This document shows, piece after piece, positions 11,543 through 46,249 of a stretch of DNA of 64,000 nt. Source of the stretch: Gammaproteobacteria bacterium (GTDB lineage Bacteria > Pseudomonadota > Gammaproteobacteria > Natronospirales > DASSBR01); assembly GCA_035690945.1 (NCBI GenBank), contig DASSJY010000018.1, forward strand, positions 48,590 through 112,589, in the 5' to 3' direction. The notes beneath the pieces were generated by a model. It was not told where the DNA came from and ran no database searches. It was given only the letters and a program-made list of their open reading frames with translations. The position numbers and the translations under genes are program-made. How positions within the stretch are numbered: the stretch's first letter is position 1; each line of letters begins with the position of its first letter.

Positions 11543-11572
11543 GGCGAACGGCCATGATAGCGCATCGTAGCC

Positions 11573-13021
11573 TCAGCGCTTCCAGAACGCCGGCGTGAAC
11601 AGGATCAGCAGCGGGTAGATTTCGAGTCGCCCCAGCAGCATCGCGGCGATCAGCGTCCATTTGGCGACACTGCTCACTCCCTCGAAGCCGAATGTGACAC
11701 TGCCGAGGCCAGGACCGACATTGTTCATGCAGGTCGCGAGCCCCGAAAAGGCCTCCAGCGGCTGCATCCCGGTCGCCAGCAGGATCATCATCATGATCGC
11801 GAACAGCGCGAAATAGGTCGCAACGAAACCGAGCACCGCCTGCAGAATACGGTTCGGCACCGGCGACCGGCCGCTCTTGACGGGGATTTCGGCGCTCGGG
11901 TGCAGCAGCCGGCGGATTTCGCGCAGCGCCTGCTTGGTCATCAGGTGGATACGCAGCACCTTGAGGCCGCCGGTCGTGGAACCGACGCAGGCACCCATGA
12001 AGCCGATGAAAATCAGCATCATCGGAATGAAGCCGGGCCACTGGCTGAAGTCGGCGGACAGAAAGCCGGTGGTCGTCATCATCGATGTGTACTGGAACAC
12101 GGACTCGACAAACGATTTGAACGCCGTCGGATAGACATGGCGAAAATACAGGTCGCCGGTCATCGTCGCAACCAGCAAAACGGTGATGCCAAGATAGAAG
12201 CGGAATTCGGGATCGCGGAAATAGGTTTTGATTGAACCGGTACGCAGCGCGGCGAAATGCAGCGCAAAATTGGCGCCGGATATGAACATAAAAAATGAGG
12301 CGATCAATTCCAGCGCATTGCTGTCGTAGTAACCGAAACTGGCATCGTGCATCGAGAAGCCGCCGGTGGCCACGGTGGCGAAGCTGTTGCCGATCGCGTC
12401 GAACAACGGCATGCCTCCCAGCCAGTAGGACAGCGCGCAAGTGAAGGTGATGCCGAGATAGATCAGCCACAGCGCTTTCGCCGTTTCCTGCACGCGCGGC
12501 GTCAGCTTGTCCTTGACCGGGCCGGGGGTCTCGGCGCGATAGAGCTGCATGCCGCCCACGCCGAGGATCGGCAGCACCGCGAGCGCCAGCACGATAATGC
12601 CCATGCCGCCGAACCAGTGCAGTTGCTGGCGGTAGTAGAGGATCGAATGCGGCAGCTTGTCGAGACCGGTCAGGACGGTCGCGCCCGTGGTCGTGAGGCC
12701 GGAGACGGTTTCGAACACGGCATCGGTATACGACATCTGCGGATGGACGGCGAACCAGAACGGCAGCGCGCCCAGCAGCCCGCACAGCACCCAGATCGCC
12801 GCAACGATCAGGAAGCCGTCGCGCAGCCGCAAGTCTGGGTGATGATGAGGAGCAAGGGTCCACGCGATCAGGCCGACGCCGACGATAATCGCGAAGCCAT
12901 ACACGAACGGCATCAGCGCGCCGTCGCCGTAAATCCAGTACACCAGCATCGGCACGGCCAATGTCAGCCCGAACAGGGTCAGCATCAGGCCGAGAATGCG
13001 TTGGACGGCACCGAGATGCAT
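11573..13021 (-). CDS. trkH: Trk system K+ uptake protein TrkH
   Basis: 482-aa polytopic protein. '[10 protein letters not shown]' and 'TTTGF' selectivity-filter-like repeats. Directly downstream of trkA. Confidence 0.9.
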
Positions 13022-13039
13022 CGGGATCAGCAGCCGGCG

Positions 13040-14416
13040 CTACACAAAATCGACGCCCACCTGGAATAGCTTTTCGACCGCCGCGATGTGCTTGCGCTCA
13101 ATCACGAACAGGATTACGTGGTCGCCGTTTTCGATTACGATGTCGTCGTGCGCCATGAGCACCTCGTCGCCACGAACGATCGCGCTCATCGTCGCCCCCG
13201 GCGGCAGGTCGATCTCGTCGACCCGGCGGCCGACGACGCGCGACTTGCCGTTGCCGCCGTGCGCGACCGCCTCGATGGCCTCGGCCGCGCCGCCGCGCAG
13301 CGAGTGCACGTTAAGCACGTCGCCACGGCGGATGTAGGTCAAAAGCGCGCCGATCGTCACCTGTTGAGGCGACAGCGCGATGTCGATCGAGCCACTCTGC
13401 ACCAGATCGACGTACGCCGGCCGGTTGATCAGCGCGAGCACCTTGCGCGCGCCCAGTCGCTTGGCCAGCATCGCCGACAGGATGTTCGCTTCCTCGGCGT
13501 TGGTAACGCCGCAGAACACATCGACGTTTTCGATGCTCTCCTCGCGCAGCAATTCCTCGTCGGCAGCGTCGCCGTTGAGCACGATGGTATTGTCGAGCAG
13601 TTCGGACACCTTCCGCGCGCGGTCGCGATTGCGCTCGATCAGCTTGACGTTGTGATTGTCCTCGAGCGCATCGGCGAGGCGCACGCCAATATTGCCGGCA
13701 CCGGCGATAATCACGCGCCGGATCGGCTTGTCAAGCTTGCGCAACTCGCTGATTACGGTCCGGATGTCGCGCCGCGCGGCGATAAAAAAGACCTCGTCGT
13801 CCGCCTCGATCACCGTATCGCCAGTCGGAATAATCGGCTGGCCGCGGCGGTAAATCGCCGCCACGCGCGCCTCCACCTGCGGTACATGATCGCGGAGCGC
13901 ACGCAACTGCTTGCCGACCAAGGGCCCGCCATAGTACGCCTCCACCGCAACAAGGCGCACCTTGCCGTCGGCGAAATCCAGCACCTGCAGCGCGCCGGGG
14001 TAATTCATCAGCCGGCTGATGTAGTCGGTGACGAGCTGCTCTGGGCTGATCAGCCGGTCGATACCGAGCGCCCCCTGCTGGAATATTTCCCCGGCGGCGA
14101 GATATTCGCTCGCGCGGACCCGTGCGATCTTGGTTGGCGTATGAAACAACGCGTGGGCGATCTGGCAGGCGACGATGTTGACCTCGTCGCTGTCGGTGAC
14201 GGCGATGAGCATGTCGGCGTCATCGGCGCCGGCTTCGCGGAGGATATTCGGGAACGCCCCTGACCCATGCACGGTGCCGAGATCGAGCCGTTTTTCGAGG
14301 TCACCAAGCACTGCCTCGTTGTTGTCGACCACGGTGATGTCGTTGTCGGTCTCCGTGACCAGCTTGTGGGCCACGGTCGTCCCCACCTGGCCGGCACCGA
14401 GGATGATTATTTTCAT
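13040..14416 (-). CDS. trkA: Trk system K+ uptake protein TrkA (tandem RCK/NAD-binding)
   Basis: 'MKIIILGAGQVGTTVA' and a second 'VIIAGAGNIGVRLA' Rossmann motif. 458 aa, as for TrkA. Confidence 0.95.
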   Translation of the reverse strand: MKIIILGAGQVGTTVAHKLVTETDNDITVVDNNEAVLGDLEKRLDLGTVHGSGAFPNILREAGADDADMLIAVTDSDEVNIVACQIAHALFHTPTKIARVRASEYLAAGEIFQQGALGIDRLISPEQLVTDYISRLMNYPGALQVLDFADGKVRLVAVEAYYGGPLVGKQLRALRDHVPQVEARVAAIYRRGQPIIPTGDTVIEADDEVFFIAARRDIRTVISELRKLDKPIRRVIIAGAGNIGVRLADALEDNHNVKLIERNRDRARKVSELLDNTIVLNGDAADEELLREESIENVDVFCGVTNAEEANILSAMLAKRLGARKVLALINRPAYVDLVQSGSIDIALSPQQVTIGALLTYIRRGDVLNVHSLRGGAAEAIEAVAHGGNGKSRVVGRRVDEIDLPPGATMSAIVRGDEVLMAHDDIVIENGDHVILFVIERKHIAAVEKLFQVGVDFV

Positions 14417-14449
14417 GGCGGCGAGCCTACTGCATTACCGAGCGGAAGG

Positions 14450-16372
14450 CTAGATTCGGACCTGCAAGCCCATCTCGACTGTCTGATCCGACGGAATCTG
14501 ATAGTACGCGGTCGCCTTGACGGAATTTCGCACCATGAAGGCGAACAACTGGTCGCGCCAGGTCGGCATGCCCCCCTTCTTGCGGCCGACCAGCAGCGAC
14601 TGGCGGCCGATGTAGTAGGTGGCGTCGTTGACGTTGATATCGATACCCAACGCCCCGCACGCGGCCAGCTCGGACGGAATATTCGGCCCCTGCATGTAGC
14701 CGTAATGCAGGATCACGCGGTAAAAGCCCTGCGGGAAAAACTTGATTTCGATGCGCTCGTCCGCCGGCACCCGCGACGCGTTGCTGGTGAGCACCGTCAG
14801 CAGTATCACCTGCTCGTGCAGCACCTTGTTGCGCGCGATGTGGTGGCGTAATGCCGATGGCGTCGCGGTCAGTCTCCCGGTCAGGAATACCGCCGTGCCC
14901 GGCACGCGCTGCACTTTCGACTGCGCAAACTCGCCGATAAACGTTTCCAGCTTATCGGCACTTTTCGCGGTTTGCGCCTGCAACAGCGCGCCGCCACGCC
15001 GCCAGGTGGACATCAGCGTGAAAAAGATGATGCCGACGATCACCGGGAACCAGCCGCCGTCCGCCAGCTTGACCAGGTTGGACCCGAAGAAGCTCAGGTC
15101 AATGAACAGGAAGCCGACGAGAAATGCCACCGCCGCCGGCCAGCGCCAGCCGCCGCGTTCGCGGGCGACGTTGAACGCGAGAATCGTCGTCACCACCATG
15201 GTGCCGTTGACGGCGATGCCGTAGGCCGCGGCGAGGTTGCTCGAACTCTGGAAGCCCACGACCAGCCCGATTGCGGCGATCATCAGCACCCAATTGACCG
15301 CCGGTACATAAATCTGTCCGCGTGTCTCGGCGGACGTCTGCACGACCCGGAAACGCGGCATCTGGCCGAGCTGGATCGCTTGGCGGGTGAGCGAAAACGA
15401 GCCGCTGATAGTCGCCTGCGACGCGATCACGGTGGCAACCGTCGTCAGCACCACCAGCGGATACAGCGCCCAGCCGGGCGCCAGGTTGAAGAACGGCTGC
15501 ACCGCTTGGTGGGGGTGCGCGAGCAGCATCGCGCCCTGGCCGAAATAGTTGAGCAGCACTGCCGGCAGCACGAACCTGAACCAGGCGCGGCGGATCGGCC
15601 CGCGGCCGAAATGACCCATATCCGCGTACAGCGCCTCGCCGCCGGTCGTCACGAGGAAGATCGCGTACAACACCAGGAATGCCGCCCAGCCGGCATGGTG
15701 AAAGAACTCGAACGCGTACAGCGGGTTGATGGCCTTGAGCACTTGCGGTTCGTTGACGATGGCGCTTATCCCGAGGCCCGCAAGCACCACAAACCAGACC
15801 ACCATGATCGGGCCGAACACCGCGCCCACCTTGGCGGTGCCATGCTTCTGGAACGCGAACAGCAGCAGCAGGATGATGATCGTGAGCGGGATCACATAGG
15901 GCGCAAATGCCGGCGTGGCCACCTCCAGACCTTCGACGGCGCTGAGGATGGAAATTGCCGGGGTGATCATGATGCCGCCGTACAGGAGCGCGGCGCCGAA
16001 CAGGCCGGTCATGATCAGCAGCCAGCGCCGTCGGCGTTCGAGGCCCTTCCACGGCCGGAGCAAGCCGATCAGGGCGAAGATGCCGCCTTCGCCGCGGTTG
16101 TCCGCGCGCAGCACGAAGGTCATGTACTTGAGCGAGATGACCAGGATCAGCGTCCAGAAAATCAGCGACAGCACGCCGAGGACGTCAGTAGGGTTCACCG
16201 GCACCGGGTTCGCACCTTCGAAGCAGGCACGGAACGAATAAATCGGGCTCGTGCCAATGTCGCCATAAACGACGCCCAGGACGGCCAGGCCGGCCGCGAT
16301 ACGTTTGCGGCGATCGCCTTGCGCTGTGCCGGCGCGGCCCCGCAGCGCGATATCCTGCATCGATTTGCTCAT
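14450..16372 (-). CDS. kup: KUP/HAK/KT family potassium transporter
   Basis: 'LGVVYGDIGTSPIY' signature, 12 TM spans plus a cytoplasmic C-domain. 640 aa. Confidence 0.95.
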   Translation of the reverse strand: MSKSMQDIALRGRAGTAQGDRRKRIAAGLAVLGVVYGDIGTSPIYSFRACFEGANPVPVNPTDVLGVLSLIFWTLILVISLKYMTFVLRADNRGEGGIFALIGLLRPWKGLERRRRWLLIMTGLFGAALLYGGIMITPAISILSAVEGLEVATPAFAPYVIPLTIIILLLLFAFQKHGTAKVGAVFGPIMVVWFVVLAGLGISAIVNEPQVLKAINPLYAFEFFHHAGWAAFLVLYAIFLVTTGGEALYADMGHFGRGPIRRAWFRFVLPAVLLNYFGQGAMLLAHPHQAVQPFFNLAPGWALYPLVVLTTVATVIASQATISGSFSLTRQAIQLGQMPRFRVVQTSAETRGQIYVPAVNWVLMIAAIGLVVGFQSSSNLAAAYGIAVNGTMVVTTILAFNVARERGGWRWPAAVAFLVGFLFIDLSFFGSNLVKLADGGWFPVIVGIIFFTLMSTWRRGGALLQAQTAKSADKLETFIGEFAQSKVQRVPGTAVFLTGRLTATPSALRHHIARNKVLHEQVILLTVLTSNASRVPADERIEIKFFPQGFYRVILHYGYMQGPNIPSELAACGALGIDINVNDATYYIGRQSLLVGRKKGGMPTWRDQLFAFMVRNSVKATAYYQIPSDQTVEMGLQVRI

Positions 16373-16378
16373 CGGTGG

Positions 16379-17938
16379 TCAGACTTCATGCATGCGGATC
16401 CGCTTGTCGGGCTGCATGAGTGCGTTGCTGTCCTCAAGTTGCTTGAGCGCCGCCTGATAGCTGCTGAAATCGATCGCGCCGCTGAGCGCGTGCGCGCGCA
16501 CCAGCATGCGCACAAACGGCTCGGGGTCGTTCTGGCGCGTCAGCGCGCGCAGCGCGAGCCAGTAATCGCCGCAATAGACCGGCGGAATCAGGACGCGCAT
16601 CTGGTCGGCCGCGGACAGTTCAGCGTTCATCATCACCCGGGCGATGCGTCCGCTGCCGGAATCGAACGGGTGACACTCGCGGACCAGGAACAACATGAAT
16701 GCTGCACGGGTAAAGGGCTCCTGCAATTCCCGGTACAACTCGTAGCCGCGCAGCAGCGTCGGGCGAATGTGCTCGGCGGCGATGAAGCGGGTGATGTCGG
16801 TCTGCTCGCCCGGCTGGCGAAAGCGTCCAGCCGGCTGGTCGTCGCGCTCCGCGAACAGGACCTGGTGGCGGCGCGTCAGCAGCGTAAGGAAGTCGTCGCC
16901 GCTGACCGGCCGCCTACCGAGATCGTTACCGGTCTCGACCAGCCGGAACGTGTTGAGCAGCACCGCCGAGTCCATCGGCCGTTCCGCCAGCGGGCGTTCA
17001 TCAACAATGACCTCGTGGGCCGCGTCCACGTCGAATTCAAGACCGGCGAGGTAATTGGAAAAGTATGCCTCGAAAAATGCACGGTTGATGTGCCAGCCGG
17101 GCGCATGCTCGCCGCGCGGCCGCCCGATGTACTTGCGCTCGCGGAGCACCCGGAACAGGTTCTGAAACAGTTGCAGTCGCTCGCGATCGCAGCCGGCATC
17201 GGCGTCGCCCTTCGCAGCATCCGGTTCGGCCGTCGCGCGCCGCGCCAATGCGCCTACCTGTGACAGCGACGAGCGCACCTTCTTCGTGTGCTGCGTGACG
17301 CCGCGAAACCGCGTCCAGGCGGCCCTGACGCCGCTGCCGTCCGGCGCGCAGACGTTGTCCAGCAGGTCTTCCAGCAGCCGGAACTCTTCATGCCAGTCGA
17401 ACTGTGCGGCCAGCTCGCGGGCCCGGCTGCGCAGCCGCTCGCGATCGGCCGGATCGGTGATGCCCCGCAGGTACGCCTGAAGCGCATCGGCCGGCAGGGC
17501 GCGCGGTGCGTCCTTACGATGCCGCGACGCCGCCAGGTTCTCGAGAAATGCGCGTGCCGGCGAGGCGAGGTGCAGGTCGTGGGTAAAGGGCCGGTCGCCG
17601 GCCAGCGGACCTGGCGCGTTGATTAGCTTCAACGTGTGGCCCGGCAGGGAGACCTTGCGGGTGCCGTGATAGCTCAGGTAAACACAGCCGTCCGGCGACG
17701 GCGCCTGCTCGAATGCGGTGCGCCAGCCCACCACCGCGCCCGGCCAGAAGTGCCCCGCGATCGCAAAGATATTGCGGCCGACGATCGCCTCGGGCGGTTC
17801 ATCGAGATTGGAGGTATAGAGCTTCGGCCCCAGCTTGCGCAACTGGCCGCGGCGGACCAACTCCTCGACGGCATCCGGCGTGAAGCTCGTATCGGTATCG
17901 AAGACGATTTCCGGCAGGCTGCCAGCAGTTTTTTCCAT
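16379..17938 (-). CDS. Fic/DOC family protein with an N-terminal AbiEi-like winged-helix region and a degenerate Fic motif
   Basis: 'HPFDSGSGRIAR' at 16637-16672, compared with the canonical HPFx(D/E)GNGRxxR. N-terminal 'VEELVRRGQLRKLGPKLYT' resembles AbiEi-type wHTH. The start is uncertain (ATG 17938 or TTG 17992). Confidence 0.7.
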   Translation of the reverse strand: MEKTAGSLPEIVFDTDTSFTPDAVEELVRRGQLRKLGPKLYTSNLDEPPEAIVGRNIFAIAGHFWPGAVVGWRTAFEQAPSPDGCVYLSYHGTRKVSLPGHTLKLINAPGPLAGDRPFTHDLHLASPARAFLENLAASRHRKDAPRALPADALQAYLRGITDPADRERLRSRARELAAQFDWHEEFRLLEDLLDNVCAPDGSGVRAAWTRFRGVTQHTKKVRSSLSQVGALARRATAEPDAAKGDADAGCDRERLQLFQNLFRVLRERKYIGRPRGEHAPGWHINRAFFEAYFSNYLAGLEFDVDAAHEVIVDERPLAERPMDSAVLLNTFRLVETGNDLGRRPVSGDDFLTLLTRRHQVLFAERDDQPAGRFRQPGEQTDITRFIAAEHIRPTLLRGYELYRELQEPFTRAAFMLFLVRECHPFDSGSGRIARVMMNAELSAADQMRVLIPPVYCGDYWLALRALTRQNDPEPFVRMLVRAHALSGAIDFSSYQAALKQLEDSNALMQPDKRIRMHEV

Positions 17939-18052
17939 GAGGAAGCGCCTGTTCGCGGACGCGTAGTTTACGCTGCCGAATGTGCTGGACAAATCTTTAA
18001 AGCCACGCCCGTGACGTCGCCACCTGTCAGACGGATCGGAGGAGCCGCATGC

Positions 18053-18814
18053 TCAGTGATCCAGTCGCGGCTGCTCCGCCTCTTCGGGTGCGGTGTAGCT
18101 GACCAGGCGATAGCCCACACCGGGCTCGGTCTGAATGTAGCGCGGTTCGGTAGGATCGTCACCCAGCTTGTGTCGCAACCGCGCGACGATAACGCGCAGG
18201 TAATGGGTGTCTTCTTCGTGAGTCGGACCCCAGATTTCGCGCAGCAGATGTGTTTGCGTCACGACGCGGTCGCGATTCGCAAACAGCGACTTCAGGACCG
18301 CGAACTCCTTGCGTGTGAACCGTACCCCCTCGCCGGCCACCTCCACCTGTCGGTGAGCCATATCGATGCTCAGGTAACCGTCATTGTAAAGGCCGCCGCC
18401 CGAATCTTCGGGTACCACCACGCGAAGCAGGTTACGTACGCGGGCGAGGAACTCCTGCAATCCGAACGGTTTAGTGACATAGTCATTGGCGCCGGCATCG
18501 AGAGCGCGCACTTTCTCGTTTTCGTCGGCGCGCACCGAAAGGATAATTACCGGTACGCTGGACCAACTCCGAATTTCCCGGAGCACGTCCTTACCGTCCA
18601 CACCGCGCAGGCCGAGGTCCAATACGACGAGTTCGGGCGACCGCGTAGCCGCCAGCTTCATGCCTTCGTCGGCGGTGGCGGCCTCCATGACTTCGTATCC
18701 CTGGCTTCCCAAGCTGATGCGCAGGAAGCGTCGGATCTGGACTTCGTCGTCGATGACGAGAATCCGGGTCGGCGGCGCGCCGACTTCATCGTCGCTGATC
18801 GCACCGACCATCAA
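18053..18814 (-). CDS. kdpE: OmpR-family response regulator, KdpE-like
   Basis: 'ILVIDDEVQIRRFL', 'VVLDLGL', 'VIILSVRADENEKVRALDAGANDYVTKPFG' and a C-terminal 'YIQTEPGVGYRL' wHTH are closest to the KdpE pattern. Confidence 0.8.
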   Translation of the reverse strand: MMVGAISDDEVGAPPTRILVIDDEVQIRRFLRISLGSQGYEVMEAATADEGMKLAATRSPELVVLDLGLRGVDGKDVLREIRSWSSVPVIILSVRADENEKVRALDAGANDYVTKPFGLQEFLARVRNLLRVVVPEDSGGGLYNDGYLSIDMAHRQVEVAGEGVRFTRKEFAVLKSLFANRDRVVTQTHLLREIWGPTHEEDTHYLRVIVARLRHKLGDDPTEPRYIQTEPGVGYRLVSYTAPEEAEQPRLDH

Positions 18815-18933: not shown

Positions 18934-20517
18934 TCATCTACTCGCTCTGTGCGGATCGCCTTCGCCGCCGAGTAATGCACCGGCCGCGCTGCCTGCGCGA
19001 CCTTTCATCTGCTCGGCAAGCAGTGAATTGCCGAATTCGTCGAGCGTCTGCGTGATGCTGCCGGAGAATGCCGCAAGCCCGGTGTTGATGAACAAGAGCG
19101 GGATAGCGATGCTGAGGCCCAGTACGGTGGCAATCATGGCGTGACCGATACCGGTGGCCATCACCGTCGGATCGCCGCCGCCGGAGGCCACGATCGCATA
19201 GAAAGTGATGATCATGCCGGTCACGGTGCCGATCAGCCCAAGGAGTGGACCTGCCGCCACCGCCAGCCGGAGGAACCACTGGAAACGTTCCAGCTTCGGC
19301 ACTTCCTGCTGGATCGCTTCGTGCAGGTGCAACGCGGCTACGTCGGCGCTTTCCGCCGCCTTCTTGTCGCTGAGATAGGTTGCCAGCAAGCGGCCGAGCG
19401 GGTTATCCAGTTTTGGCTCGGATGGATTTTTGAGCTGTGCGCGGACGCCACGGCGCGTCTTCAGCAAATAAAGAACCTGGTACAACGCCAGCAGTACGCC
19501 GATGATACCGACCGCAATGATGATGTAGCCCACCATCTGACCCAGCTGTATCCGCTCGAGCCAACTCGGGCGCTGCAGGTACCGGTGAAACAGTCCGCCT
19601 CGGGTTACATCGACGACGGCGGGAACATAGCCGGGGCCCGGCGCGGTTTGCGCCAAATCGTGGGCGATGTCCTGGAAATTGCCTGGCATAGAGCCATCAA
19701 GTTCCGTTAAGGATTTTACAGTCGAAAGGTAGCCGAGATATTCATCGTCGTGGACGACCGTGAACGGCCCGACCCGCACGACATCGGTAGGCACCGCGGT
19801 TCCGGTCGGCTGGCCGTTATCGAGCTGCAGCACATCGGTCCGGTAGCGCACTACCTTGCCTTCACCGACCGTCTCTCTCAGGATTTCAAACCACATCCGC
19901 TCCAGATTCTTGATCGAAGGCAGCGACTTCGCCTGGGCCATCCGCAACAGGAACTTCGAGCGCTCTTCCTCTCCCGGCTTCGGTTGAAACTGGGTGCTCA
20001 ACAACGAGTCGCGCAATTCCTTGGCCGCCTTTGATGAAGCTACCCGGACGACGCCGAACAGCTCACCGAGATCCCCTTGGCGCTGCGTCAGCAATTTGCT
20101 GAGCGAGTCGATTTGCGCGTTGTTGTCCTTCAATTGTTTCTGGAGTGCGTCGGCGCGGGCGTTGGCGGCATCCCGACGCGCAACAGCCTTGCGCACCAGT
20201 TCTTGCTCATGCGCGAGCTTCTGCTTGGCGTCGTGCAGGCGTTGCGCCGCGGTGGCCGATTGCTTCTTGCGAATCTGACGCACTTCATCGGATAGCTCCG
20301 CCAGCGTCTTGGCTCGCTGGCGCGCGGCGGCGGCAGCGGCGGCCTTCGCCTTGGCCGCTTCGGACGCGGAATTTTGCTGTGCCCAAGCCGTGCCCGAGAG
20401 CCCTACGGCAATCGAGGCTATGCTCGCCACCAGCAGGGCGCGCGCGCCGCGGCGCAGAGTGACCTTGCCATTTCGATTCAAATTTTTGCACGTCATAGCG
20501 GTGCCGTCTCTCTCCAC
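18934..20517 (-). CDS. Large MotA/TolQ/ExbB-family protein with a signal peptide and ~300-aa periplasmic coiled-coil N-domain (TtpC-like, copy 2)
   Basis: Signal peptide '...SIAVGLSGTAWA', A/K/Q-rich coiled coil, then 'GPLLGLIGTVTGMIITF...MATGIGHAMIATVLGLSIAIPLLF' (ExbB channel motif). GTG 20517 lies 1 nt after the exbD stop (alternative ATG 20496). Confidence 0.8.
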   Translation of the reverse strand: MERDGTAMTCKNLNRNGKVTLRRGARALLVASIASIAVGLSGTAWAQQNSASEAAKAKAAAAAAARQRAKTLAELSDEVRQIRKKQSATAAQRLHDAKQKLAHEQELVRKAVARRDAANARADALQKQLKDNNAQIDSLSKLLTQRQGDLGELFGVVRVASSKAAKELRDSLLSTQFQPKPGEEERSKFLLRMAQAKSLPSIKNLERMWFEILRETVGEGKVVRYRTDVLQLDNGQPTGTAVPTDVVRVGPFTVVHDDEYLGYLSTVKSLTELDGSMPGNFQDIAHDLAQTAPGPGYVPAVVDVTRGGLFHRYLQRPSWLERIQLGQMVGYIIIAVGIIGVLLALYQVLYLLKTRRGVRAQLKNPSEPKLDNPLGRLLATYLSDKKAAESADVAALHLHEAIQQEVPKLERFQWFLRLAVAAGPLLGLIGTVTGMIITFYAIVASGGGDPTVMATGIGHAMIATVLGLSIAIPLLFINTGLAAFSGSITQTLDEFGNSLLAEQMKGRAGSAAGALLGGEGDPHRASR

Positions 20518-20518
20518 G

Positions 20519-20938
20519 TCAGTCGCTGCCGCCAGGCTGACTGGCCGCTATCGCGATCTGGTCTATGCCGCCGGCGTGCACCTTATTCATGACTTTCGCC
20601 ACCACCCCGGCCTGCGAGTCCTTGTCCGCGACAATGACCACGGTGTCGTGCGGGCGCTCGATATGCAGTCGCTGAACCATCGCCGGCAGGTCGTCCAGGC
20701 CCACCTGATGCCCGCCCATCCAGATGTCTCCGTTGGGCTCGATGGCAATCAGCAGCTTGCCGGATTTCATTTCCTGGGCGGTCGTGGCATTCGGCCTGAA
20801 AACCGTGACGCCGGGCCGGTTGATGAACGACGTCGTGATAATGAAAAAAATCAACAGGTTGATGGTGAAGTCCAGCATCGGGGCGAGGTCGATGCCATGG
20901 TGCTCCGATTCAGTCTTTATCCGGCGTTGTCGTATCAT
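20519..20938 (-). CDS. exbD: ExbD/TolR family protein (copy 2)
   Basis: 'HGIDLAPMLDFTINLLIFFIIT' N-terminal TM motif, 139 aa. Its start overlaps the upstream exbD stop by 1 nt (TGATG). Confidence 0.85.
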   Translation of the reverse strand: MIRQRRIKTESEHHGIDLAPMLDFTINLLIFFIITTSFINRPGVTVFRPNATTAQEMKSGKLLIAIEPNGDIWMGGHQVGLDDLPAMVQRLHIERPHDTVVIVADKDSQAGVVAKVMNKVHAGGIDQIAIAASQPGGSD

Positions 20939-21351
20939 CAGGTTCCGCCCGCTGTCGCGAAGGTTACGTTGTAAACGCCCGCCATATGCGCCTGGTCCAC
21001 CACCTGTACCAGCACCCCGGTGGGGGCGCGTTGATCCGCGACGATCAATACGGTGGCATTAGGGGTGGCGGCAAGCGAGTGTTCAATATCGGCGCGCACC
21101 GCTTGCACATCGACGACGCGGCTGCCGATCGATATCTTGCCATCGGCACCGATCTGGACCTGGACCACCTTTTGCTTCGTCTGCTTCTGCTGCTGCTGCT
21201 GCGAGGACGGCCGATTGACCACCACCCCGTACTGCTGGATGAACACCGCCGTGATGATGAAAAAGATGAGCAAATTGATACAGAAGTCCAGCATCGGCGC
21301 AAGGTCGATACCATGCGTCGCCACTTCGGCATCTGATTGTCGCCGACGCAT
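20938..21351 (-). CDS. exbD: ExbD/TolR family protein (copy 1, with a poly-Gln linker)
   Basis: Start set at ATG 21351 (MRRRQSDAEVATHGIDLAPMLDFCINLLIFFIIT). The 257-aa ORF-track version runs through exbB in another frame and was rejected. Confidence 0.85.
   Translation of the reverse strand: MRRRQSDAEVATHGIDLAPMLDFCINLLIFFIITAVFIQQYGVVVNRPSSQQQQQKQTKQKVVQVQIGADGKISIGSRVVDVQAVRADIEHSLAATPNATVLIVADQRAPTGVLVQVVDQAHMAGVYNVTFATAGGT
21181..21201. repeat. In-frame CTG/CAG trinucleotide run inside exbD copy 1
   Basis: CTGCTT(CTG)5 on the plus strand, which is (CAG)5 on the coding strand and encodes QQQQQ in the linker 'SSQQQQQKQTKQK'. Confidence 0.9.
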
Positions 21352-21359
21352 ACGCACGG

Positions 21360-21884
21360 CTATACGCTCAACTCGTCCGCCAGCTGCTCGGTTTCCCGAG
21401 TCGCCCGCGAGCGGAAATAGTAAACGGGGTAGAGACCACTGACCGCGACGGCGAGTCCGGTCATGGTGTTGATCATCGCGGCCGACACGCCGGCGGCCAT
21501 GGCACGGGCGTCGGCGGTGCCGAGTATGGACATGGAACTGAACACCTGCAGCATACCGGTGACCGTGCCGACCAGTCCGATGAGTGGCGCCATCGCCACC
21601 AGCACCGAGAGTACCGGGTGGCCCTTCGTCATGGAGACGTTCAGCCGGGAAATCAGGCCTTCGCGGATTTGCCGCGCGCACCAGGACGTGTGATCCTCGC
21701 GGGCATCCCATTCAGCGCGCACTGCTGCCTTTTCCTTTGGCAGCACCCGCCAGAAATACCAGGTGCGCTCAGCGGTGAGGGTCCATAGCAGGACCCCCGT
21801 CGCGAAGATCCACAAGACGAGCGTTCCGCCCTGACCGGCGAGGTACGCAATGCTGTCGAGAAGAGGGATATGGCTGAACATCAC
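21360..21884 (-). CDS. exbB: ExbB/TolQ-type proton channel (small form)
   Basis: 174 aa, 3 TM spans. 'MAPLIGLVGTVTGMLQVF' and 'AAGVSAAMINTMTGLAVAV' are MotA/TolQ/ExbB motifs. Confidence 0.85.
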   Translation of the reverse strand: MMFSHIPLLDSIAYLAGQGGTLVLWIFATGVLLWTLTAERTWYFWRVLPKEKAAVRAEWDAREDHTSWCARQIREGLISRLNVSMTKGHPVLSVLVAMAPLIGLVGTVTGMLQVFSSMSILGTADARAMAAGVSAAMINTMTGLAVAVSGLYPVYYFRSRATRETEQLADELSV

Positions 21885-23338
21885 GCTGTCCCTCCGCGCC
21901 GCTCCTTCGCCTTTCCCGCACCGCCTTTGCTCTGTTGCTGCTCAATCCTTTCAGCAAGCATGCCGCTGCTCTGCTTGTCGAGAATCTGCACGATGCTGTC
22001 CGACAGGGACTTCAGCAGCGCGTTGCCGAACAACAAGGGGATGGCGACACCGAGGCCGAGCACCGTCGCAATCATCGCGTGGCCAATACCGGTGGCCATC
22101 AGCCGCGGATCGGCGGAGCCGGTGTCAGTGATGGTCTGGAACGTCTCAATCATGCCGACCACGGTGCCGATCAGGCCGAGCAGCGGTCCGGAGGCGACGG
22201 CGAGACGCAGGTACGACTGGAATCGCTCGAGTCTCGGCTCCTCGCGCAGCACCTGTTCAGTGATGCGCAACTCCGCGATATCGGCTTCTTCCTCGATGCG
22301 GTCCGGATCGCCCTTGAACGCCAGCAACACGCGGCCCAACGGATTGTCATTCCTGGGATTGTTCAGATCCTTGAGCTGCTTGTTGACGGCCATCCTCGCG
22401 GCGATCAGCCTGAAGATCTGGAAGAAGAACAGGATCGCGCCAATCACGCCGACGGCGATGATGACGTATCCCACCCCTTGGCCGAGCTGGATTCGCTGCA
22501 GCCACGTCGGGCGGTTGATGTACAACCCGATCAGCGCTCCGGTGCCGCTCGAATCGATGACCGCACGAGCGTAGCCCTGATGAGTGTCCTGAAAATCAGC
22601 CAGGATGCTCCGGAAATTGCCCGGCAGTTCGCGCGGCAGCACGCTCAGAGTGTTGAGATCCGGCAGATATTGAAGGAAGCGACCCTCGGACGTCGCCGTG
22701 AACGGCCCGACCCGGGTAACCTTGCTGACAACGCTCTTGTTGTTGGCCTGCACCACCGGCGCCTGGTAACTCACCACCTGCCCCTGGGCGGTCATTTCAT
22801 GTTGAATGACGTACCACAGCCGCTGGAGATCATCCAGCGTCGGCGTGCCGTTTGAGTTGGCAAGGCCCTGCAGAAACGCAAGACGACCCGTCTTGCCCTG
22901 CGGCGGCGAGAACTGGGTATTGGTCAGCGCATTCTGAAGGGTGGTGGCGAGATTATCCGCGTCTTTCTGAGCGGTGCTGAACACGCCCGACAGGTCTGCT
23001 GCCTGGGCTTGCGCATTGATCTGATCTTCCATCTTCCCGATCTGCATTTCGTTCGCCGAATACTGATCGGAGGCTTGCGACGCAGCCGCCTTGGCCTGGT
23101 TAAGCGCGGCCTCCGCCTGCTTCATCATGGCCTGTTGCTGGTCCGGCGACGCCGCGGCGAATTGCGCGCGGGCCTGGTTCATTTGTGCCTGCTGCTGCTG
23201 GCTTACCGATTGAACCTGGTTGAGCAACTGTTCGAGTGAATTTGCATTTGCAGTCGCCGGCGCAGCCTCGGCGAACGTGGAAGCAGCGACGAAAGCAGCG
23301 AGTACGATGCCGGTAGCGGCGGCCAACGATTTCCTCAC
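21881..23338 (-). CDS. Large MotA/TolQ/ExbB-family protein with a periplasmic coiled-coil N-domain (TtpC-like, copy 1)
   Basis: Signal peptide 'AAFVAASTFAEA', Q/A-rich coiled coil, C-terminal 'GPLLGLIGTVVGMIETF...MATGIGHAMIATVLGLGVAIPLLF'. 4-nt overlaps with both neighbours. Confidence 0.8.
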   Translation of the reverse strand: MRKSLAAATGIVLAAFVAASTFAEAAPATANANSLEQLLNQVQSVSQQQQAQMNQARAQFAAASPDQQQAMMKQAEAALNQAKAAASQASDQYSANEMQIGKMEDQINAQAQAADLSGVFSTAQKDADNLATTLQNALTNTQFSPPQGKTGRLAFLQGLANSNGTPTLDDLQRLWYVIQHEMTAQGQVVSYQAPVVQANNKSVVSKVTRVGPFTATSEGRFLQYLPDLNTLSVLPRELPGNFRSILADFQDTHQGYARAVIDSSGTGALIGLYINRPTWLQRIQLGQGVGYVIIAVGVIGAILFFFQIFRLIAARMAVNKQLKDLNNPRNDNPLGRVLLAFKGDPDRIEEEADIAELRITEQVLREEPRLERFQSYLRLAVASGPLLGLIGTVVGMIETFQTITDTGSADPRLMATGIGHAMIATVLGLGVAIPLLFGNALLKSLSDSIVQILDKQSSGMLAERIEQQQSKGGAGKAKERRGGTA

Positions 23339-24195
23339 GACTGCGCCCCCTGTTGCGCCGCTTGCGACGCCGGCTGCGGCGCGGGCACGGGCACGGTCAA
23401 CAACTGGGGCGTGCCCTTCTGGTTAGCCATATTCACGGCATTCTGGAAGGCATCGGCGTAGTCGTTATCGACCACCCATTTGTGTTCGTTCTTGTTCCAG
23501 TAGCCCGTTTCGGAGCCGTCGAGGGTCTGGTACATCAGGGATACGCGGCCGATGTGGACAAATTTGACTGCCCGGGCGTTCTGGCCGGTGCCCAGCGTGC
23601 CGTCGTAGGAACTAAGAGTCCGTCCGTAATCGAGTTCGGCCAGATAGTCCTGCAGGATGACGCGGTACTTCTCGGAGATCGACACGTCGGGGCGCGTCAT
23701 CAGGTCCTCGAGATCCTGTATCCGCTTCTCGCGCTCCTTGGGCAGGAAAGGCAGGTCGAGCTTCACGAAGTTCGCCAGCGTCTGGACCATGTTGGCCATC
23801 AGCGGCTGGATGCCGCGCTTGGTCACATCGATCTGCTGCATTTGCCGCTTGATCGACGCGATCCGCTCCTGCTGCGCTTGCACCAGGCCGCTCAGCGTCT
23901 TGCTGTAGTGTTCGTAGCTTCTGGCTGCCGCCAGCGCTTCCGCATACTTGGTGGCAGCGTCCTGCGTCTTGTCAGTGAGATCGTTGATCTGCTGCTGAGA
24001 CTTCGCGGCGGCTTTGTTGGCTGCAGCCATCGATGCCATTACGTCGTCGAGGTTTTTGTTGTTGGCAGACATGGCCGGGAAGGCCGCGGCTACCGCGAAC
24101 ATAGCCACTACTGCTACGCAGATCGACTTGGGGGCCGATCTCCGGCGGGCAATCGTCTTGCTCGCATTGGGGTTGCTGGAACGGAAATTCCTCAT
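23335..24195 (-). CDS. DUF3450-like periplasmic coiled-coil protein (TtpB-like first gene of TonB2-type clusters)
   Basis: 'LDLPFLPKEREKRIQDLEDLMTRPDVSISEKYRVILQDYLAELDYGRT' is the DUF3450 core pattern. It has a signal peptide, and AGGAGG lies 9 nt upstream of the ATG. Confidence 0.75.
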   Translation of the reverse strand: MRNFRSSNPNASKTIARRRSAPKSICVAVVAMFAVAAAFPAMSANNKNLDDVMASMAAANKAAAKSQQQINDLTDKTQDAATKYAEALAAARSYEHYSKTLSGLVQAQQERIASIKRQMQQIDVTKRGIQPLMANMVQTLANFVKLDLPFLPKEREKRIQDLEDLMTRPDVSISEKYRVILQDYLAELDYGRTLSSYDGTLGTGQNARAVKFVHIGRVSLMYQTLDGSETGYWNKNEHKWVVDNDYADAFQNAVNMANQKGTPQLLTVPVPAPQPASQAAQQGAQS

Positions 24196-24403
24196 GGCAA
24201 TTCATGCCTCCTGTCGCACGCCTTCGGCATCAACGGCGTTGGCTCATTTCTGTCTGGATATTCCCGGCTGGCGTCCGTGACATACGCCGGAACTTGACTT
24301 GGTTAATCGCTCGGATTCGAGCGAAAAGCCATTCTGTAGGCGCGGGGTGTATAAAAACTATGGCAAAAGTTGGACGGATGCGTAAAAAATTCGTAAAAAA
24401 ACA

Positions 24404-26470
24404 TTACCCAACATGGGCGCGCTCCTCCCTGGACTCCTGCGGCAAGGCGATCAACGGCAACCGAATAGCGATCACGGCACCGCGGCTATTCGGCCCCGGC
24501 AGAGCCTCAATACTACCTCCGTGCGCAGCTATTATGCCTTGACAGATTGCCAGGCCCAACCCGCTGCCGTGCGGCCCGGTATCGCCGTCGCCACCGGTGA
24601 AAAACATGTCGAAGACCCGATCGCGATCGGCTTCCGGTATGCCCGCACCCTGATCGGCCACCGTGATCAGCAACTGCCCGCCTTCCTGTCGGGCGGCGAT
24701 GCGGACCTCGCCGCCCGACGGCGAAAAGCGTGCGGCATTTTCGATCACATTCACCAGCGCCTGCTCAATGAGCGCGGAGTTCACGTAAAGCAGGGGCAGG
24801 TCGGCAGGGATATCGCGCACGATGTGCACTTCCGTCAGCATGTCGCGGGCGCGCTGCAGTGCTGAAGCCACGACGTCCGCCAGCGTCACCCAGTCACGCG
24901 GCAGTTTGAGCGTGGTGCCGTCGCCAAGCCGGGTCATGTCAAGGAGATTTTCAATATATCGGTTGAGCCGGAGGCCTTCGCTCAGCACCGCATCGAGCAT
25001 CTCGTACTTGTCCGTTTCCGAGAGCCGGTCGCCCAGATCGCGCAAGGTGCTCGCCGAGCCGATCATCGACGCGAGCGGCGTGCGCAGGTCATGCGACACC
25101 GAGGACAGCAGCGCCGAGCGCAGCCGTTCGGTCTCTTCGGCCACCCGCGCGCGCTCGAGATTCGAGGTCAGTTCCGTGCGCGCGAGGGTCAGCGTCACCT
25201 GGTTGGCCAGCGCATCCAGCAGCAGCAGTTGCTCGTTGCGCGGCCTGATCGGCAGTTCGCCAAACTTGACGCCCAGCACGCCATAACGGCTCTCTTCGAG
25301 GGTCAGCGGCACGAACCGCCAGCCGACGCCCGGCAGCGTTTCGCCGAGGTAGCCACTCGGCCGGTCGTGTTCGAACGCCCAGTTTGCCGCCGCCTGCAAT
25401 CTGTCACTCAGGGCGACAGGTTCCGGTGCGGAGGCAGAGAGTTCGATGCCGCCCCGTCCGATTGTCGTCAACAGGCACGTCGGCACGCGCTCGATTTTTG
25501 CGATCGCCTCGACCGCCGCGCGACGCACGGCGGCCGAGTCGGGCGCCTCGGCGAGTTGCTTGCTGAACGCAAGCAGGGCCTGGCTCTGGGCGTTCGTTGC
25601 GCGCAGTGCCGCAACCTGGACACGCAGACGATGCGCCAGATTGCTGCCGATAATCGCGGCCGCCAGGAACAGCAGCACGGCGATGAACTCGTTGGCGGGA
25701 TAATTCGCGAGTCCGGATATCGGTCCGATAAACAGGAAGTTGTACGCCAGCGAAGTCAGCACTGCGGCGACCAGCGCGGGCGCCAGCGAGGTACGTACCG
25801 CTACGATCAACACACCCACGAGCAGGACCAGCGAAAGGTTGGACAAATCCAACGGCAGCGTGAACGCCAACATCTCCGAAATCGCGGTGCAAATTGCAAC
25901 GACTATCAGGGCGTAGGAATAGTGACGCCAGGGCGATCCGCGCAGTTCGTCGAGCCACGCTCCCCAGCGTCCCCGCAGCGTCGCGGCCTCGGCCGGCGCC
26001 GCACTGACGATGGTAATCTCGAAATCCCCGTGATCCCGCAACAGCCGCTGCGTGAACGTCTGGCGGAAGAACCCCGCGAGAGGCCGTCTGCGGGTGCGGC
26101 CGATGACAATCGTGGTGGCGTTGTGGTCGCGCGCATAGGCGACGATCTCGGCGTCGACGGATCGTCCGCGCAGAACAATTGCGTCGCCGCCAAGCCGCTC
26201 CACGAGCCGAAAAGCGCGTTCGATGCGCTCCCGCACCGCGGCGCCGGGACGACCGGTTTCGACATGGACCACCGTCCATGGCGCACGCCGTTGATCGGCG
26301 ATCCGTTTCCCGGCCCGCACGACCCGCTCCGAGTTGCGCCCGCCGTCGATGGCGACCACTACCCGCTTGCGGGCCGCGGTTTCCGGCTTCTCACGAACCG
26401 CGCCGCCGGCCGCGCGCGGCCGACGTTCACCATAGTGCCGGACTACCGGCTGCACGTCGGGCGATCGCAT
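24404..26470 (-). CDS. kdpD: KdpD-like sensor histidine kinase lacking the N-terminal KdpD P-loop domain (Usp-TM-GAF-like-HisKA-HATPase)
   Basis: It starts directly with a Usp-like region ('VVVAIDGGRNSERVV...TTIVIGRTRRR'), then four TM spans, then the H-box 'LLSSVSHDLRTPLASMIGS' and G-boxes 'DQGAGIP'/'GSGLGLAI'. 688 aa, versus about 890 aa for E. coli KdpD. Confidence 0.75.
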   Translation of the reverse strand: MRSPDVQPVVRHYGERRPRAAGGAVREKPETAARKRVVVAIDGGRNSERVVRAGKRIADQRRAPWTVVHVETGRPGAAVRERIERAFRLVERLGGDAIVLRGRSVDAEIVAYARDHNATTIVIGRTRRRPLAGFFRQTFTQRLLRDHGDFEITIVSAAPAEAATLRGRWGAWLDELRGSPWRHYSYALIVVAICTAISEMLAFTLPLDLSNLSLVLLVGVLIVAVRTSLAPALVAAVLTSLAYNFLFIGPISGLANYPANEFIAVLLFLAAAIIGSNLAHRLRVQVAALRATNAQSQALLAFSKQLAEAPDSAAVRRAAVEAIAKIERVPTCLLTTIGRGGIELSASAPEPVALSDRLQAAANWAFEHDRPSGYLGETLPGVGWRFVPLTLEESRYGVLGVKFGELPIRPRNEQLLLLDALANQVTLTLARTELTSNLERARVAEETERLRSALLSSVSHDLRTPLASMIGSASTLRDLGDRLSETDKYEMLDAVLSEGLRLNRYIENLLDMTRLGDGTTLKLPRDWVTLADVVASALQRARDMLTEVHIVRDIPADLPLLYVNSALIEQALVNVIENAARFSPSGGEVRIAARQEGGQLLITVADQGAGIPEADRDRVFDMFFTGGDGDTGPHGSGLGLAICQGIIAAHGGSIEALPGPNSRGAVIAIRLPLIALPQESREERAHVG

Positions 26471-41923: not shown

Positions 41924-42184
41924 ATGAACGGCTTGCTCGGATATTACGAAGGCGTCTTGGCGCTACTCGACGATCGCATCCGCGGCGGCGATGCCGCTTC
42001 CGCTGAAACTACCCCACCCGCCACTGAAACCGCATCGGACGAAACCGATCTCGCCAAACTGATCGCGGCTTCCGTTGAACAGGTCGCCGACAGTGCCACG
42101 CCCGAGGAGCTTCGGGCGATGCGCCTGGACATCTGCACGCAGGCACTGGGCGAAGTGGCACGCATCATGAGAGAGCCGCGATGA
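41924..42184 (+). CDS. Hypothetical acidic 86-aa protein, translationally coupled to the radical SAM gene
   Basis: G/C-biased third positions. Its stop overlaps the rSAM start (ATGA at 42181-42184). 'MNGLLGYYEGVLALLDDRIRGG' is followed by a T/P/A/E/D-rich stretch. Confidence 0.55.
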   Translation: MNGLLGYYEGVLALLDDRIRGGDAASAETTPPATETASDETDLAKLIAASVEQVADSATPEELRAMRLDICTQALGEVARIMREPR

Positions 42185-44103: not shown

Positions 44104-44272
44104 CGAATGGGTCGGCGAAGTAAGGCGGGATCCGGAACGCTATCAGCAGTTGCGGTCCGGCCTTAATGAAGCCAAAACTGGCCAAGAAAGGCTGAAGTTC
44201 CTGTCGACCTTTGCCGCACAGCAAAATGCGGCGCAGAATCATGTCGGCAAGCCGCCGACAATGATGTGGTAA
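44075..44272 (+). CDS. 65-aa candidate RiPP precursor peptide
   Basis: GGAGG (44062-44066) lies 8 nt before the ATG. It overlaps the rSAM 3' end by 29 nt. Charged helical N-terminal ~50 aa plus the Cys-free tail 'NAAQNHVGKPPTMMW'. It is followed by a 12-bp-stem hairpin. Confidence 0.5.
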   Translation: MNAVMHKRADEWVGEVRRDPERYQQLRSGLNEAKTGQERLKFLSTFAAQQNAAQNHVGKPPTMMW

Positions 44273-44286
44273 GAGTATCTTGAAAA

Positions 44287-44323
44287 TTCCGTCCGCGCTG
44301 AACTCGTTGAAGCGCGGACGGAA
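44287..44323. terminator. Strong hairpin between the convergent peptide ORF and GGDEF gene
   Basis: TTCCGTCCGCGC (44287-44298) pairs perfectly with GCGCGGACGGAA (44312-44323) across a 13-nt loop. A short T-run follows only on the minus strand (TTTTCAAG). Confidence 0.6.
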
Positions 44324-44342
44324 CCTTCCCGCTCTTCGACTT

Positions 44343-46157: not shown

Positions 46158-46249
46158 GTGCGGCCCCCCAAGGGCCAACCCCGCGGAAAAACTACTCCAC
46201 CCCGCGTCCTTTGGCAAGCAGAGCGGCCTTCGTAGCACTACACCTGGCG

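Follow-up and report, generated by a model that had tools for sequence, protein, structure and literature searches.

In a 64,000-nt stretch of DNA from an uncultured gammaproteobacterium (assembly GCA_035690945.1, contig DASSJY010000018.1, positions 48,590 to 112,589; hereafter the window), we found a six-gene operon that, judged from its sequence, encodes an inner-membrane proton motor of the Vibrio TonB2/Ttp kind, in a derivative form that lacks its own tonB and TPR gene. In transcription order the genes encode a DUF3450/TtpB-like protein (B), a first TtpC-like protein (C1), a small ExbB, two ExbD paralogues (D1 and D2) and a second TtpC-like protein (C2). We regard it as very likely that the operon descended from a TonB-bearing cluster by gene loss and retained its function. 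The lack of TonB is genuine, is seen in few loci and has been maintained by evolution, and the ordinary explanation, a TonB supplied in trans, is the most likely one. We put the probability that the operon encodes a conserved energiser whose TonB partner is encoded elsewhere in the genome at about 0.5.

The six minus-strand open reading frames (ORFs) had been listed in a first-pass annotation made from the letters alone, and all of them were confirmed with their coordinates (Table 1); neighbouring genes overlap by 4 nt (B and C1, C1 and ExbB) or 1 nt (D1 and D2), or are set apart by 8 nt (ExbB and D1) or 1 nt (D2 and C2). The start of C2 is ambiguous, lying either at a GTG at 20517 (527 amino acids, aa) or at an ATG, codon 8, at 20496 (520 aa). 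Close C2 homologues start at MTCK and two members of its protein cluster are 520 aa long; with this alternative start the gap between D2 and C2 would be 22 nt instead of 1. Hydropathy agreed with the topology proposed earlier: B has a single hydrophobic segment (residues 24-42), D1 and D2 have one transmembrane (TM) segment each, and C1 and C2 alike begin with a signal-like stretch and have three TM segments towards the C-terminus. C1 is laid out as a signal peptide, a DUF3450-like periplasmic domain of ~290 aa and a 3-TM ExbB/MotA channel domain, and C2 as a signal peptide, a long helix, a DUF3450-like globular domain and a 3-TM ExbB/MotA domain. The two are paralogous along their full length, with 42% identity, and D1 and D2 share 37%. 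The channel domain PF01618 is retained by all three ExbB-like proteins, and the Pfam matches as a whole bear out a TonB2/Ttp-type cluster with two TtpC-like proteins and two ExbD. In an alignment with E. coli ExbD (6tyi_Y), PMLD of both window proteins (APMLD in D1) falls over PFID (TPFID), so that the TM aspartate, which we take to be Asp25 of E. coli ExbD, is kept in both D1 and D2. The operon proteins score far below the NCBIfam equivalog cut-offs for ExbB, TolQ, ExbD and TolR, and are thus members of these families rather than orthologues of the E. coli proteins.

No TonB or TtpD-type TPR gene was detected in the 64 kb, as the first-pass annotation had said of the operon. When the window was searched by tblastn with the TonB and TtpD proteins of three related clusters, the best match had E = 0.3. 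Profile hidden Markov models (HMMs) were then run on all stop-to-stop segments of 40 aa or longer in the six reading frames; the best match in the window was E = 0.12 for a model of 111 cluster TonBs and E = 0.14 for a model of 94 cluster TPR proteins. The intergenic gaps of the operon are too small to hold a gene remnant. The only component of a TonB system seen in the window outside the operon is a TonB-dependent receptor of 949 aa (Plug and beta-barrel; 58162-61011), ~34 kb from the operon. Since such a receptor is encoded here, the organism may be expected to have some TonB.

In order to place the operon, we surveyed ~165 related loci, including 75 loci from species-representative genomes, whose ORFs were classified by HMMs built from the cluster proteins, and 80 metagenome loci, and traced the closest C2 homologues to their contigs. 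The order B-C1-ExbB-D1-D2-C2 without TonB and TPR was found in 4 of the ~165 fetched loci, namely the window, L003 (GCA_035708085.1; C2 94% identical), L004 (a Logan assembly; C2 66-67% identical) and L081 (GCA_035698405.1; C2 67-68% identical). One further JGI contig has the same gene order and is known from its gene list only, without DNA. The 90% identity cluster of C2 adds three NCBI proteins from metagenome-assembled genomes (MAGs) and two Logan proteins. A DUF3450 cluster lacking TonB is therefore unusual, and rather than a common, characterised variant served by an adjacent TonB, the arrangement is rare, uncharacterised and has no TonB next to it. Because the six-gene order recurs in independent assemblies, it is not an artefact.

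The six genes have been kept under strong constraint. Between the window and L003, the ratio of nonsynonymous to synonymous substitution rates (dN/dS, Nei-Gojobori) was 0.07-0.13 for all six genes at a dS of 0.2-0.55, with values of 0.078 for B, 0.12 for C1, 0.067 for ExbB, 0.066 for D2 and 0.096 for C2. Ratios in the range of the operon genes were also obtained for the neighbouring trkA, kup and fic and the response-regulator gene, and against L004 and L081 the ratios were 0.18-0.30. Each of the six genes is intact and subject to purifying selection, and the module is maintained, not decaying; pseudogenisation is ruled out by the dN/dS values. An operon kept under selection without its own tonB and TPR gene must either use a TonB from elsewhere or act independently of TonB.

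The relatives show from what the operon was derived. In L001 and L002, on contigs of complete-genome scale, the order is DUF3450-TtpC (472 aa)-ExbB-ExbD-ExbD-TonB-TPR-DUF3450-TtpC (517-519 aa), and L083 carries an 8-gene cluster with the same order minus the second DUF3450 gene (B2). Among the 75 species-representative loci, 22 loci plus variants have a 7-gene form (B-C-ExbB-D-D-TonB-TPR), 21 loci, plus ~5 with split ORFs, have the 9-gene form (B-C1-ExbB-D1-D2-TonB-TPR-B2-C2), 6-8 have the 8-gene form without B2, a few have TonB-TPR upstream of B, and the remaining loci are truncated by contig ends. The 80 metagenome loci gave the same picture. They were obtained with an alignment as query, a metagenome scan with the C2 protein alone having given no match; their identity to C2 is at most 53% over a full-length match and at most 56% over partial segments, and where the contig was complete none of the 80 had the TonB-less form. 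Save for the TonB-less set, TonB and TPR were present in every locus with enough flanking sequence. The TonB-TPR pair lies upstream of the DUF3450 gene, and not after ExbD2, in L069 and L054 and also in L124 and L132, which marks it as a mobile sub-module within these clusters.

Sequence identities show that both duplications are old, since C1, C2, D1 and D2 each form an orthologous group of their own across the loci. C1 orthologues are 55-94% identical, against ~40-45% for the C2 group; the C2 of the window is 66-94% identical to that of its TonB-less relatives, 49-60% to that of the 8- and 9-gene clusters, and 39-45% to any C1. Likewise, D1 orthologues are 54-96% identical and match the D2 group at 31-40%, while D2 orthologues are 63-95% identical and the window D2 matches other D2 proteins at 63-79% but any D1 at 38-41%. 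B orthologues are present in all related clusters, with an identity of 37-96%. The D1 and D2 pair was found in essentially every complete relative, including clusters that have a single TtpC and their own TonB and TPR, so that two ExbD genes are the rule in the whole related group. C2 is ancestral too, being the normal terminal gene of the 8- and 9-gene forms, where it follows TonB-TPR-(B2). These comparisons show an ancestral cluster with the order DUF3450(B)-TtpC1-ExbB-ExbD1-ExbD2-TonB-TPR(TtpD)-[DUF3450-2]-TtpC2. In the window lineage, tonB, the TPR gene and B2 were lost from the 8/9-gene cluster, and nothing was put in their place. We read the operon as a reduced representative of a large and uncharacterised group that is sister to the Vibrio TonB2 system.

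L005 (GCA_964554305.1), the nearest outgroup and the nearest TonB-bearing relative with full context, has a six-gene order identical to that of the window, followed by the pair (B-C1-ExbB-D1-D2-C2-TonB-TPR); its identity to the window is 64% for C1, 59-60% for C2, 60% for D1 and 62-64% for D2. Its TonB-TPR pair (11546-13590) is 56% identical to that of L084 (9289-11338), a distant 7-gene cluster, but only 25-31% identical to the pairs of 8/9-gene relatives. In contrast, the remaining L005 proteins are closer to those of 8/9-gene relatives (50-65% identity) than to those of L084 (33-44%). From this contrast we infer that the six-gene unit of L005 was re-coupled to a heterologous TonB-TtpD pair. 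On the simplest reading, the common ancestor of L005 and the window lineage had already lost tonB, the TPR gene and B2 and carried the bare six-gene unit, and L005 captured the foreign pair later; alternatively, the module was replaced in L005 and the loss took place in the window lineage. Under both histories, a TonB-TPR pair of foreign origin can be joined to the six genes, and this is our main reason for favouring a TonB-linked function in the window lineage.

The periplasmic parts of the large proteins appear to be related to the free DUF3450 protein. In a profile comparison by hhalign, 18 TtpC N-terminal regions and 15 DUF3450 proteins were collinear over 161 columns (E = 7e-5, probability 63%). 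Six of the 18 regions matched PF11932 directly (best E = 3e-5), more than matched any other family. In a 2025 survey of the MotA family, the N-terminal appendages recorded for ExbB-class A subunits include DUF3450 (PMC12505986). We conclude with moderate confidence that TtpC probably joins a DUF3450-like module and an ExbB channel in one protein, with TtpB as the free-standing version. For the periplasmic region of C2 taken whole (322 aa, 13 aligned sequences), the AlphaFold2 model reached a pLDDT of 56, so that its secondary structure alone was used; this low-confidence model has a single helix of ~100 residues (47-145). A model of C2 residues 138-322 (28 sequences, pLDDT 73.6) predicts helices and a five-strand beta-sheet. 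Foldseek found no relative of that model in the PDB (best E = 0.85, TM-score below 0.2), and a sequence search of the PDB with the DUF3450 profile returned coiled-coil noise only.

The operon is flanked by genes for a KdpD-like sensor kinase and a KdpE-like response regulator. By Pfam, the kinase has the domains Usp-DUF4118-GAF-HisKA-HATPase, without the N-terminal KdpD domain. Its best NCBIfam match is KdpD, with 333 bits over KdpD positions 249-887 and below the equivalog cut-off of 1123; the best match of the regulator is KdpE, with 231 bits (next family 175) and below the cut-off of 325. The two genes are separated in the window by the entire six-gene operon. An orthologous kinase adjoins the cluster in L002, L003, L004, L081 and L083, an orthologous regulator in L002-L005, L081 and L083, and a KdpD/KdpE-like pair is linked to the cluster in 9 loci. 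In L081 (9277-12091) kinase and regulator are adjacent and lie downstream of C2, and L004 (697-4249) has a full-length KdpD (923 aa) and a second regulator upstream. Since kinase and regulator also stand next to the cluster in the TonB-bearing L083 and L002, the linkage is older than the loss of TonB. The two-component genes had no kdpFABC neighbour in the window, L003, L004 or L081.

The 208 bp upstream of the DUF3450 gene hold a candidate promoter with two direct repeats (Table 1). Box 1 is the sole exact match to TTTAYR-N5-TTTAYR in the 64 kb; with one mismatch there are 2 matches against 0.46 expected, a number that 9 of 100 shuffles reached. The E. coli KdpE site reads TTTATA-N5-TTTACA (PMC3264566). 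Both the T-rich repeats and the -10-like element recur upstream of the operon in L003, L004 and L081, although the proteins are only 66-79% identical. We found no Fur-box-like sequence upstream of the operon, the best match of 10/19 being the background mode, and for lack of such a box we regard Fur control as unlikely. Transcription of the operon is probably activated by the flanking KdpD/KdpE-like system through the direct repeats, and not by Fur and iron. Between the candidate promoter and the DUF3450 gene lies a conserved leader with predicted stem-loops. Its best-conserved stretch, AATGAGCCAACGCCGTTGATGCCGAAGGCGTGCGACAGGAGG, stands just before the start codon; the last 55 nt are nearly invariant in the TonB-less lineages and still recognisable in L005. 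The RNAalifold consensus of the leader has 25 pairs, 7 of them with compensatory changes, at a weak energy of -15.4 kcal/mol. No Rfam family was found in the leader or anywhere else in the window.

Table 1. The six-gene operon with its flanking two-component genes and predicted upstream elements, in transcription order; positions are those of the window
Feature	Position	Strand	Description
KdpD-like sensor kinase	24404-26470	minus	688 aa; Usp-DUF4118-GAF-HisKA-HATPase
Candidate promoter	24331-24397	minus	two KdpE/OmpR-type direct-repeat boxes and a -10-like TACAGAAT
Repeat box 1 (candidate)	24381-24397	minus	TTTACG-AATTT-TTTACG; KdpE-type
Repeat box 2 (candidate, weaker)	24350-24366	minus	TTGCCA-TAGTT-TTTATA; KdpE-type
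-10-like element	24331-24338	minus	TACAGAAT; after the repeat boxes
Conserved 5' leader	24196-24330	minus	~135 nt; predicted stem-loops (alignment of five lineages)
DUF3450/TtpB-like protein (B)	23335-24195	minus	286 aa; PF11932, full-length, E = 3e-74; signal/anchor N-terminus, coiled coil, then globular domain
TtpC-like paralogue 1 (C1)	21881-23338	minus	485 aa; PF01618, residues 351-454, E = 3e-26
Small ExbB	21360-21884	minus	174 aa; PF01618, E = 2e-22
ExbD paralogue 1 (D1)	20938-21351	minus	137 aa; PF02472, E = 2e-26
ExbD paralogue 2 (D2)	20519-20938	minus	139 aa; PF02472, E = 3e-20
TtpC-like paralogue 2 (C2)	18934-20517	minus	527 aa, or 520 aa from the ATG at 20496; PF01618, residues 371-492, E = 3e-25
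KdpE-like response regulator, OmpR family	18053-18814	minus	Response_reg and Trans_reg_C; directly downstream of C2

On the reading that we favour, in which the operon works with a TonB from elsewhere, the three ExbB-type proteins would assemble around D1 and D2 as proton-driven motors of the ExbB5:ExbD2 type. The DUF3450-like coiled-coil and globular parts of the two TtpC proteins would reach into the periplasm, as would the free DUF3450 protein, and serve there as an adaptor or scaffold. The motor would then energise a TonB encoded elsewhere in the genome, and through it TonB-dependent outer-membrane transporters, for which the receptor gene in the window is one candidate; the KdpD/KdpE-like system would activate the operon through the promoter repeat boxes. 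Several points weigh against this proposal. In V. vulnificus, both TtpB2 and TtpD2 are essential for TonB2-dependent iron transport (PMC6957404), and since TtpD2 is essential there, loss of the TPR protein might disable the canonical TonB2-type function. No TonB in trans was found, and the trans partner stays hypothetical. Searches of protein collections with the TPR protein and TonB of L005 returned a clade of ~45 members, but nothing traceable to the TonB-less MAGs: no match carries the 'MAG TPA' name of the annotated C2 proteins from these MAGs, and none of the 9 TPR matches checked by accession falls in their HET series. These searches make a relocated close copy of the cluster's own TonB-TtpD pair unlikely, within the limits that MAGs are incomplete and that the word-indexed search is insensitive below ~30% identity, so that a distant TonB, for example of the TonB1 type, would escape it. 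Finally, the assignment of the KdpE boxes draws on resemblance and conservation only.

Alternatively, the motor could act independently of TonB. The free DUF3450 protein, with the coiled-coil and DUF3450-like portions of the two TtpC paralogues, would then form a force-transmitting arm comparable to TolA, and serve an envelope function under KdpDE-like control, for example during osmotic or K+ stress. The strong purifying selection without TonB or TPR in cis, and with none detectable in trans, fits such a motor; so does the predicted C2 helix (residues 47-145), which by our own estimate would measure ~15 nm if extended and could reach into the periplasm, and so do the globular domain of C2 without a solved structural relative and the K+-homeostasis neighbourhood (KdpD/E-like, Kup, TrkA, TrkH) without a Fur box. 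However, all other members of the family, at more than 150 loci, keep TonB and TPR. L005 has re-coupled the six genes to a TonB-TPR pair, which argues that the job of the module still depends on TonB, and the KdpDE-like linkage, occurring also in the TonB-bearing L002 and L083, is not peculiar to TonB-less clusters. No partner for such an output was identified. We therefore hold a TonB-independent motor to be rather unlikely, and still less probable in its fullest form, in which the DUF3450-like arms themselves are the periplasm-spanning output and drive an envelope process under a KdpDE-like stress signal.

The first-pass annotation had proposed that the extra ExbD and the extra TtpC take the positions of TonB and TPR, and that the operon encodes two stators, ExbB/ExbD1 and TtpC2/ExbD2. 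The gene order in the window, taken alone, suggests as much, and both ExbD are intact with the conserved aspartate. In the relatives, however, D2 and C2 coexist with TonB and TPR in 8- and 9-gene clusters, so that both genes are ancestral and neither is a replacement. D1 and D2 also occur together with a single TtpC in 7-gene clusters; the copy number of ExbD does not track that of TtpC, which leaves the proposed pairing without comparative support, and there are three ExbB-like proteins for two ExbD. We consider this explanation improbable. The two outputs that the first-pass annotation had named, a TonB encoded elsewhere and the coiled-coil domains themselves, are the two readings weighed above. 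A decaying remnant of a TonB2-type operon, or a misjoined contig, would account for the loss of three ancestral genes, but can be dismissed, since independent assemblies made from different samples share the six-gene order, every reading frame is intact, dN/dS is 0.07-0.13 with constraint persisting at 66-79% protein identity, and the upstream regulatory region is conserved.

UvrD is encoded upstream of the operon, and Fic, Kup and TrkAH downstream. The Fic-domain protein (537 aa, 16379-17992) lies between the response regulator and kup, a position kept in L003, L004 and L081. The K+-uptake block kup, trkA, trkH (11573-16372), on the same strand as the regulator and the operon, is directly downstream; it is syntenic in L003 and L004, and the L081 contig ends within trkA. 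A stretch of low GC content at ~42000-46300 (0.55-0.57 against ~0.63 elsewhere) may be acquired DNA, and carries genes for a B12-binding radical-SAM protein (42181-44103) and a GAF-GGDEF diguanylate cyclase (44343-46238). The protein at 49195-50766 combines an AAA_22 ATPase domain with a C-terminal peptidoglycan-binding domain (PG_binding_1), an arrangement that presumably resembles ExeA/GspA. No tRNA was found in the window.

Of TtpB, TtpC and TtpD, Vibrio genetics shows only that they are essential. The TonB-less lineage is a natural experiment on their roles, in which the motor and the DUF3450 parts stay under selection while TonB and TtpD are gone. Our results suggest that the 'energiser plus DUF3450 scaffold' and the 'TonB plus TPR' are exchangeable units, and at least one subclade appears, from its promoter and neighbouring genes, to be under KdpDE-like rather than Fur control. 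If the motor did act without TonB, TtpC/DUF3450 would be a third force-transmitting arm beside TonB and TolA, and a new type of output for motors of the ExbBD class.

Among described systems, the closest is Vibrio TonB2 (TtpB2-TtpC2-ExbB2-ExbD2-TonB2-TtpD2), known from V. anguillarum, V. cholerae and V. vulnificus (PMC6957404, PMC10734418). Both are compact single-strand operons that open with a DUF3450 gene; next come the genes for a large ExbB-like protein whose N-terminal domain is periplasmic, a small ExbB and ExbD. In contrast, the window has two ExbD and a second TtpC at the 3' end, and lacks both TonB2 and TtpD, the TPR protein of ~420 aa encoded after tonB. Features by which a Vibrio-type TonB2 system is recognised further include a need for it in TonB-dependent (iron-siderophore) uptake and regulation by iron and Fur; the window operon has no Fur box but candidate KdpE-type repeats and a flanking KdpDE-like system, and its host belongs to an uncultured MAG lineage of a non-marine type. 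Because the TonB2 and TtpD features are missing, we do not file the operon as a TonB2 system, but only as a derivative of one.

With the 5:2 motors ExbB-ExbD and TolQ-TolR (PDB 6tyi, 5sv0, 8odt and others), the operon shares the PF01618 channel, the ExbD/TolR fold family and the TM aspartate. It differs from them in that a periplasmic, DUF3450-like extension of ~300 aa is present on two of its three A subunits, and in that no TonB, TolA or Pal partner is encoded in cis. Compared with the KdpD/KdpE regulon, the putative operator resembles the known site in sequence (TTTACG-AATTT-TTTACG versus TTTATA-N5-TTTACA), but the linkage to kdpFABC is missing.

All six genes have direct orthologues, in the order B-C1-ExbB-D1-D2 ... 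C2, in the 'double ExbD' Ttp clusters of 7, 8 or 9 genes (L001, L002, L006-L080, L083-L165), which we found in Woeseiaceae, Lysobacterales, Steroidobacteraceae, Pseudomonadales, Myxococcota and other MAGs and of which we found no description in the literature searched. These clusters carry TonB and a TtpD-like TPR protein between D2 and C2, usually together with B2, or in some cases TonB-TPR upstream of B, and L005 has the pair appended after C2; unlike the 8/9-gene clusters, the window has nothing between D2 and C2, which are 1 nt apart (22 nt with the alternative start). Collectively, these comparisons show that the six-gene paradigm of Vibrio is one branch of a much larger set, in which two ExbD and often two TtpB/TtpC pairs occur.

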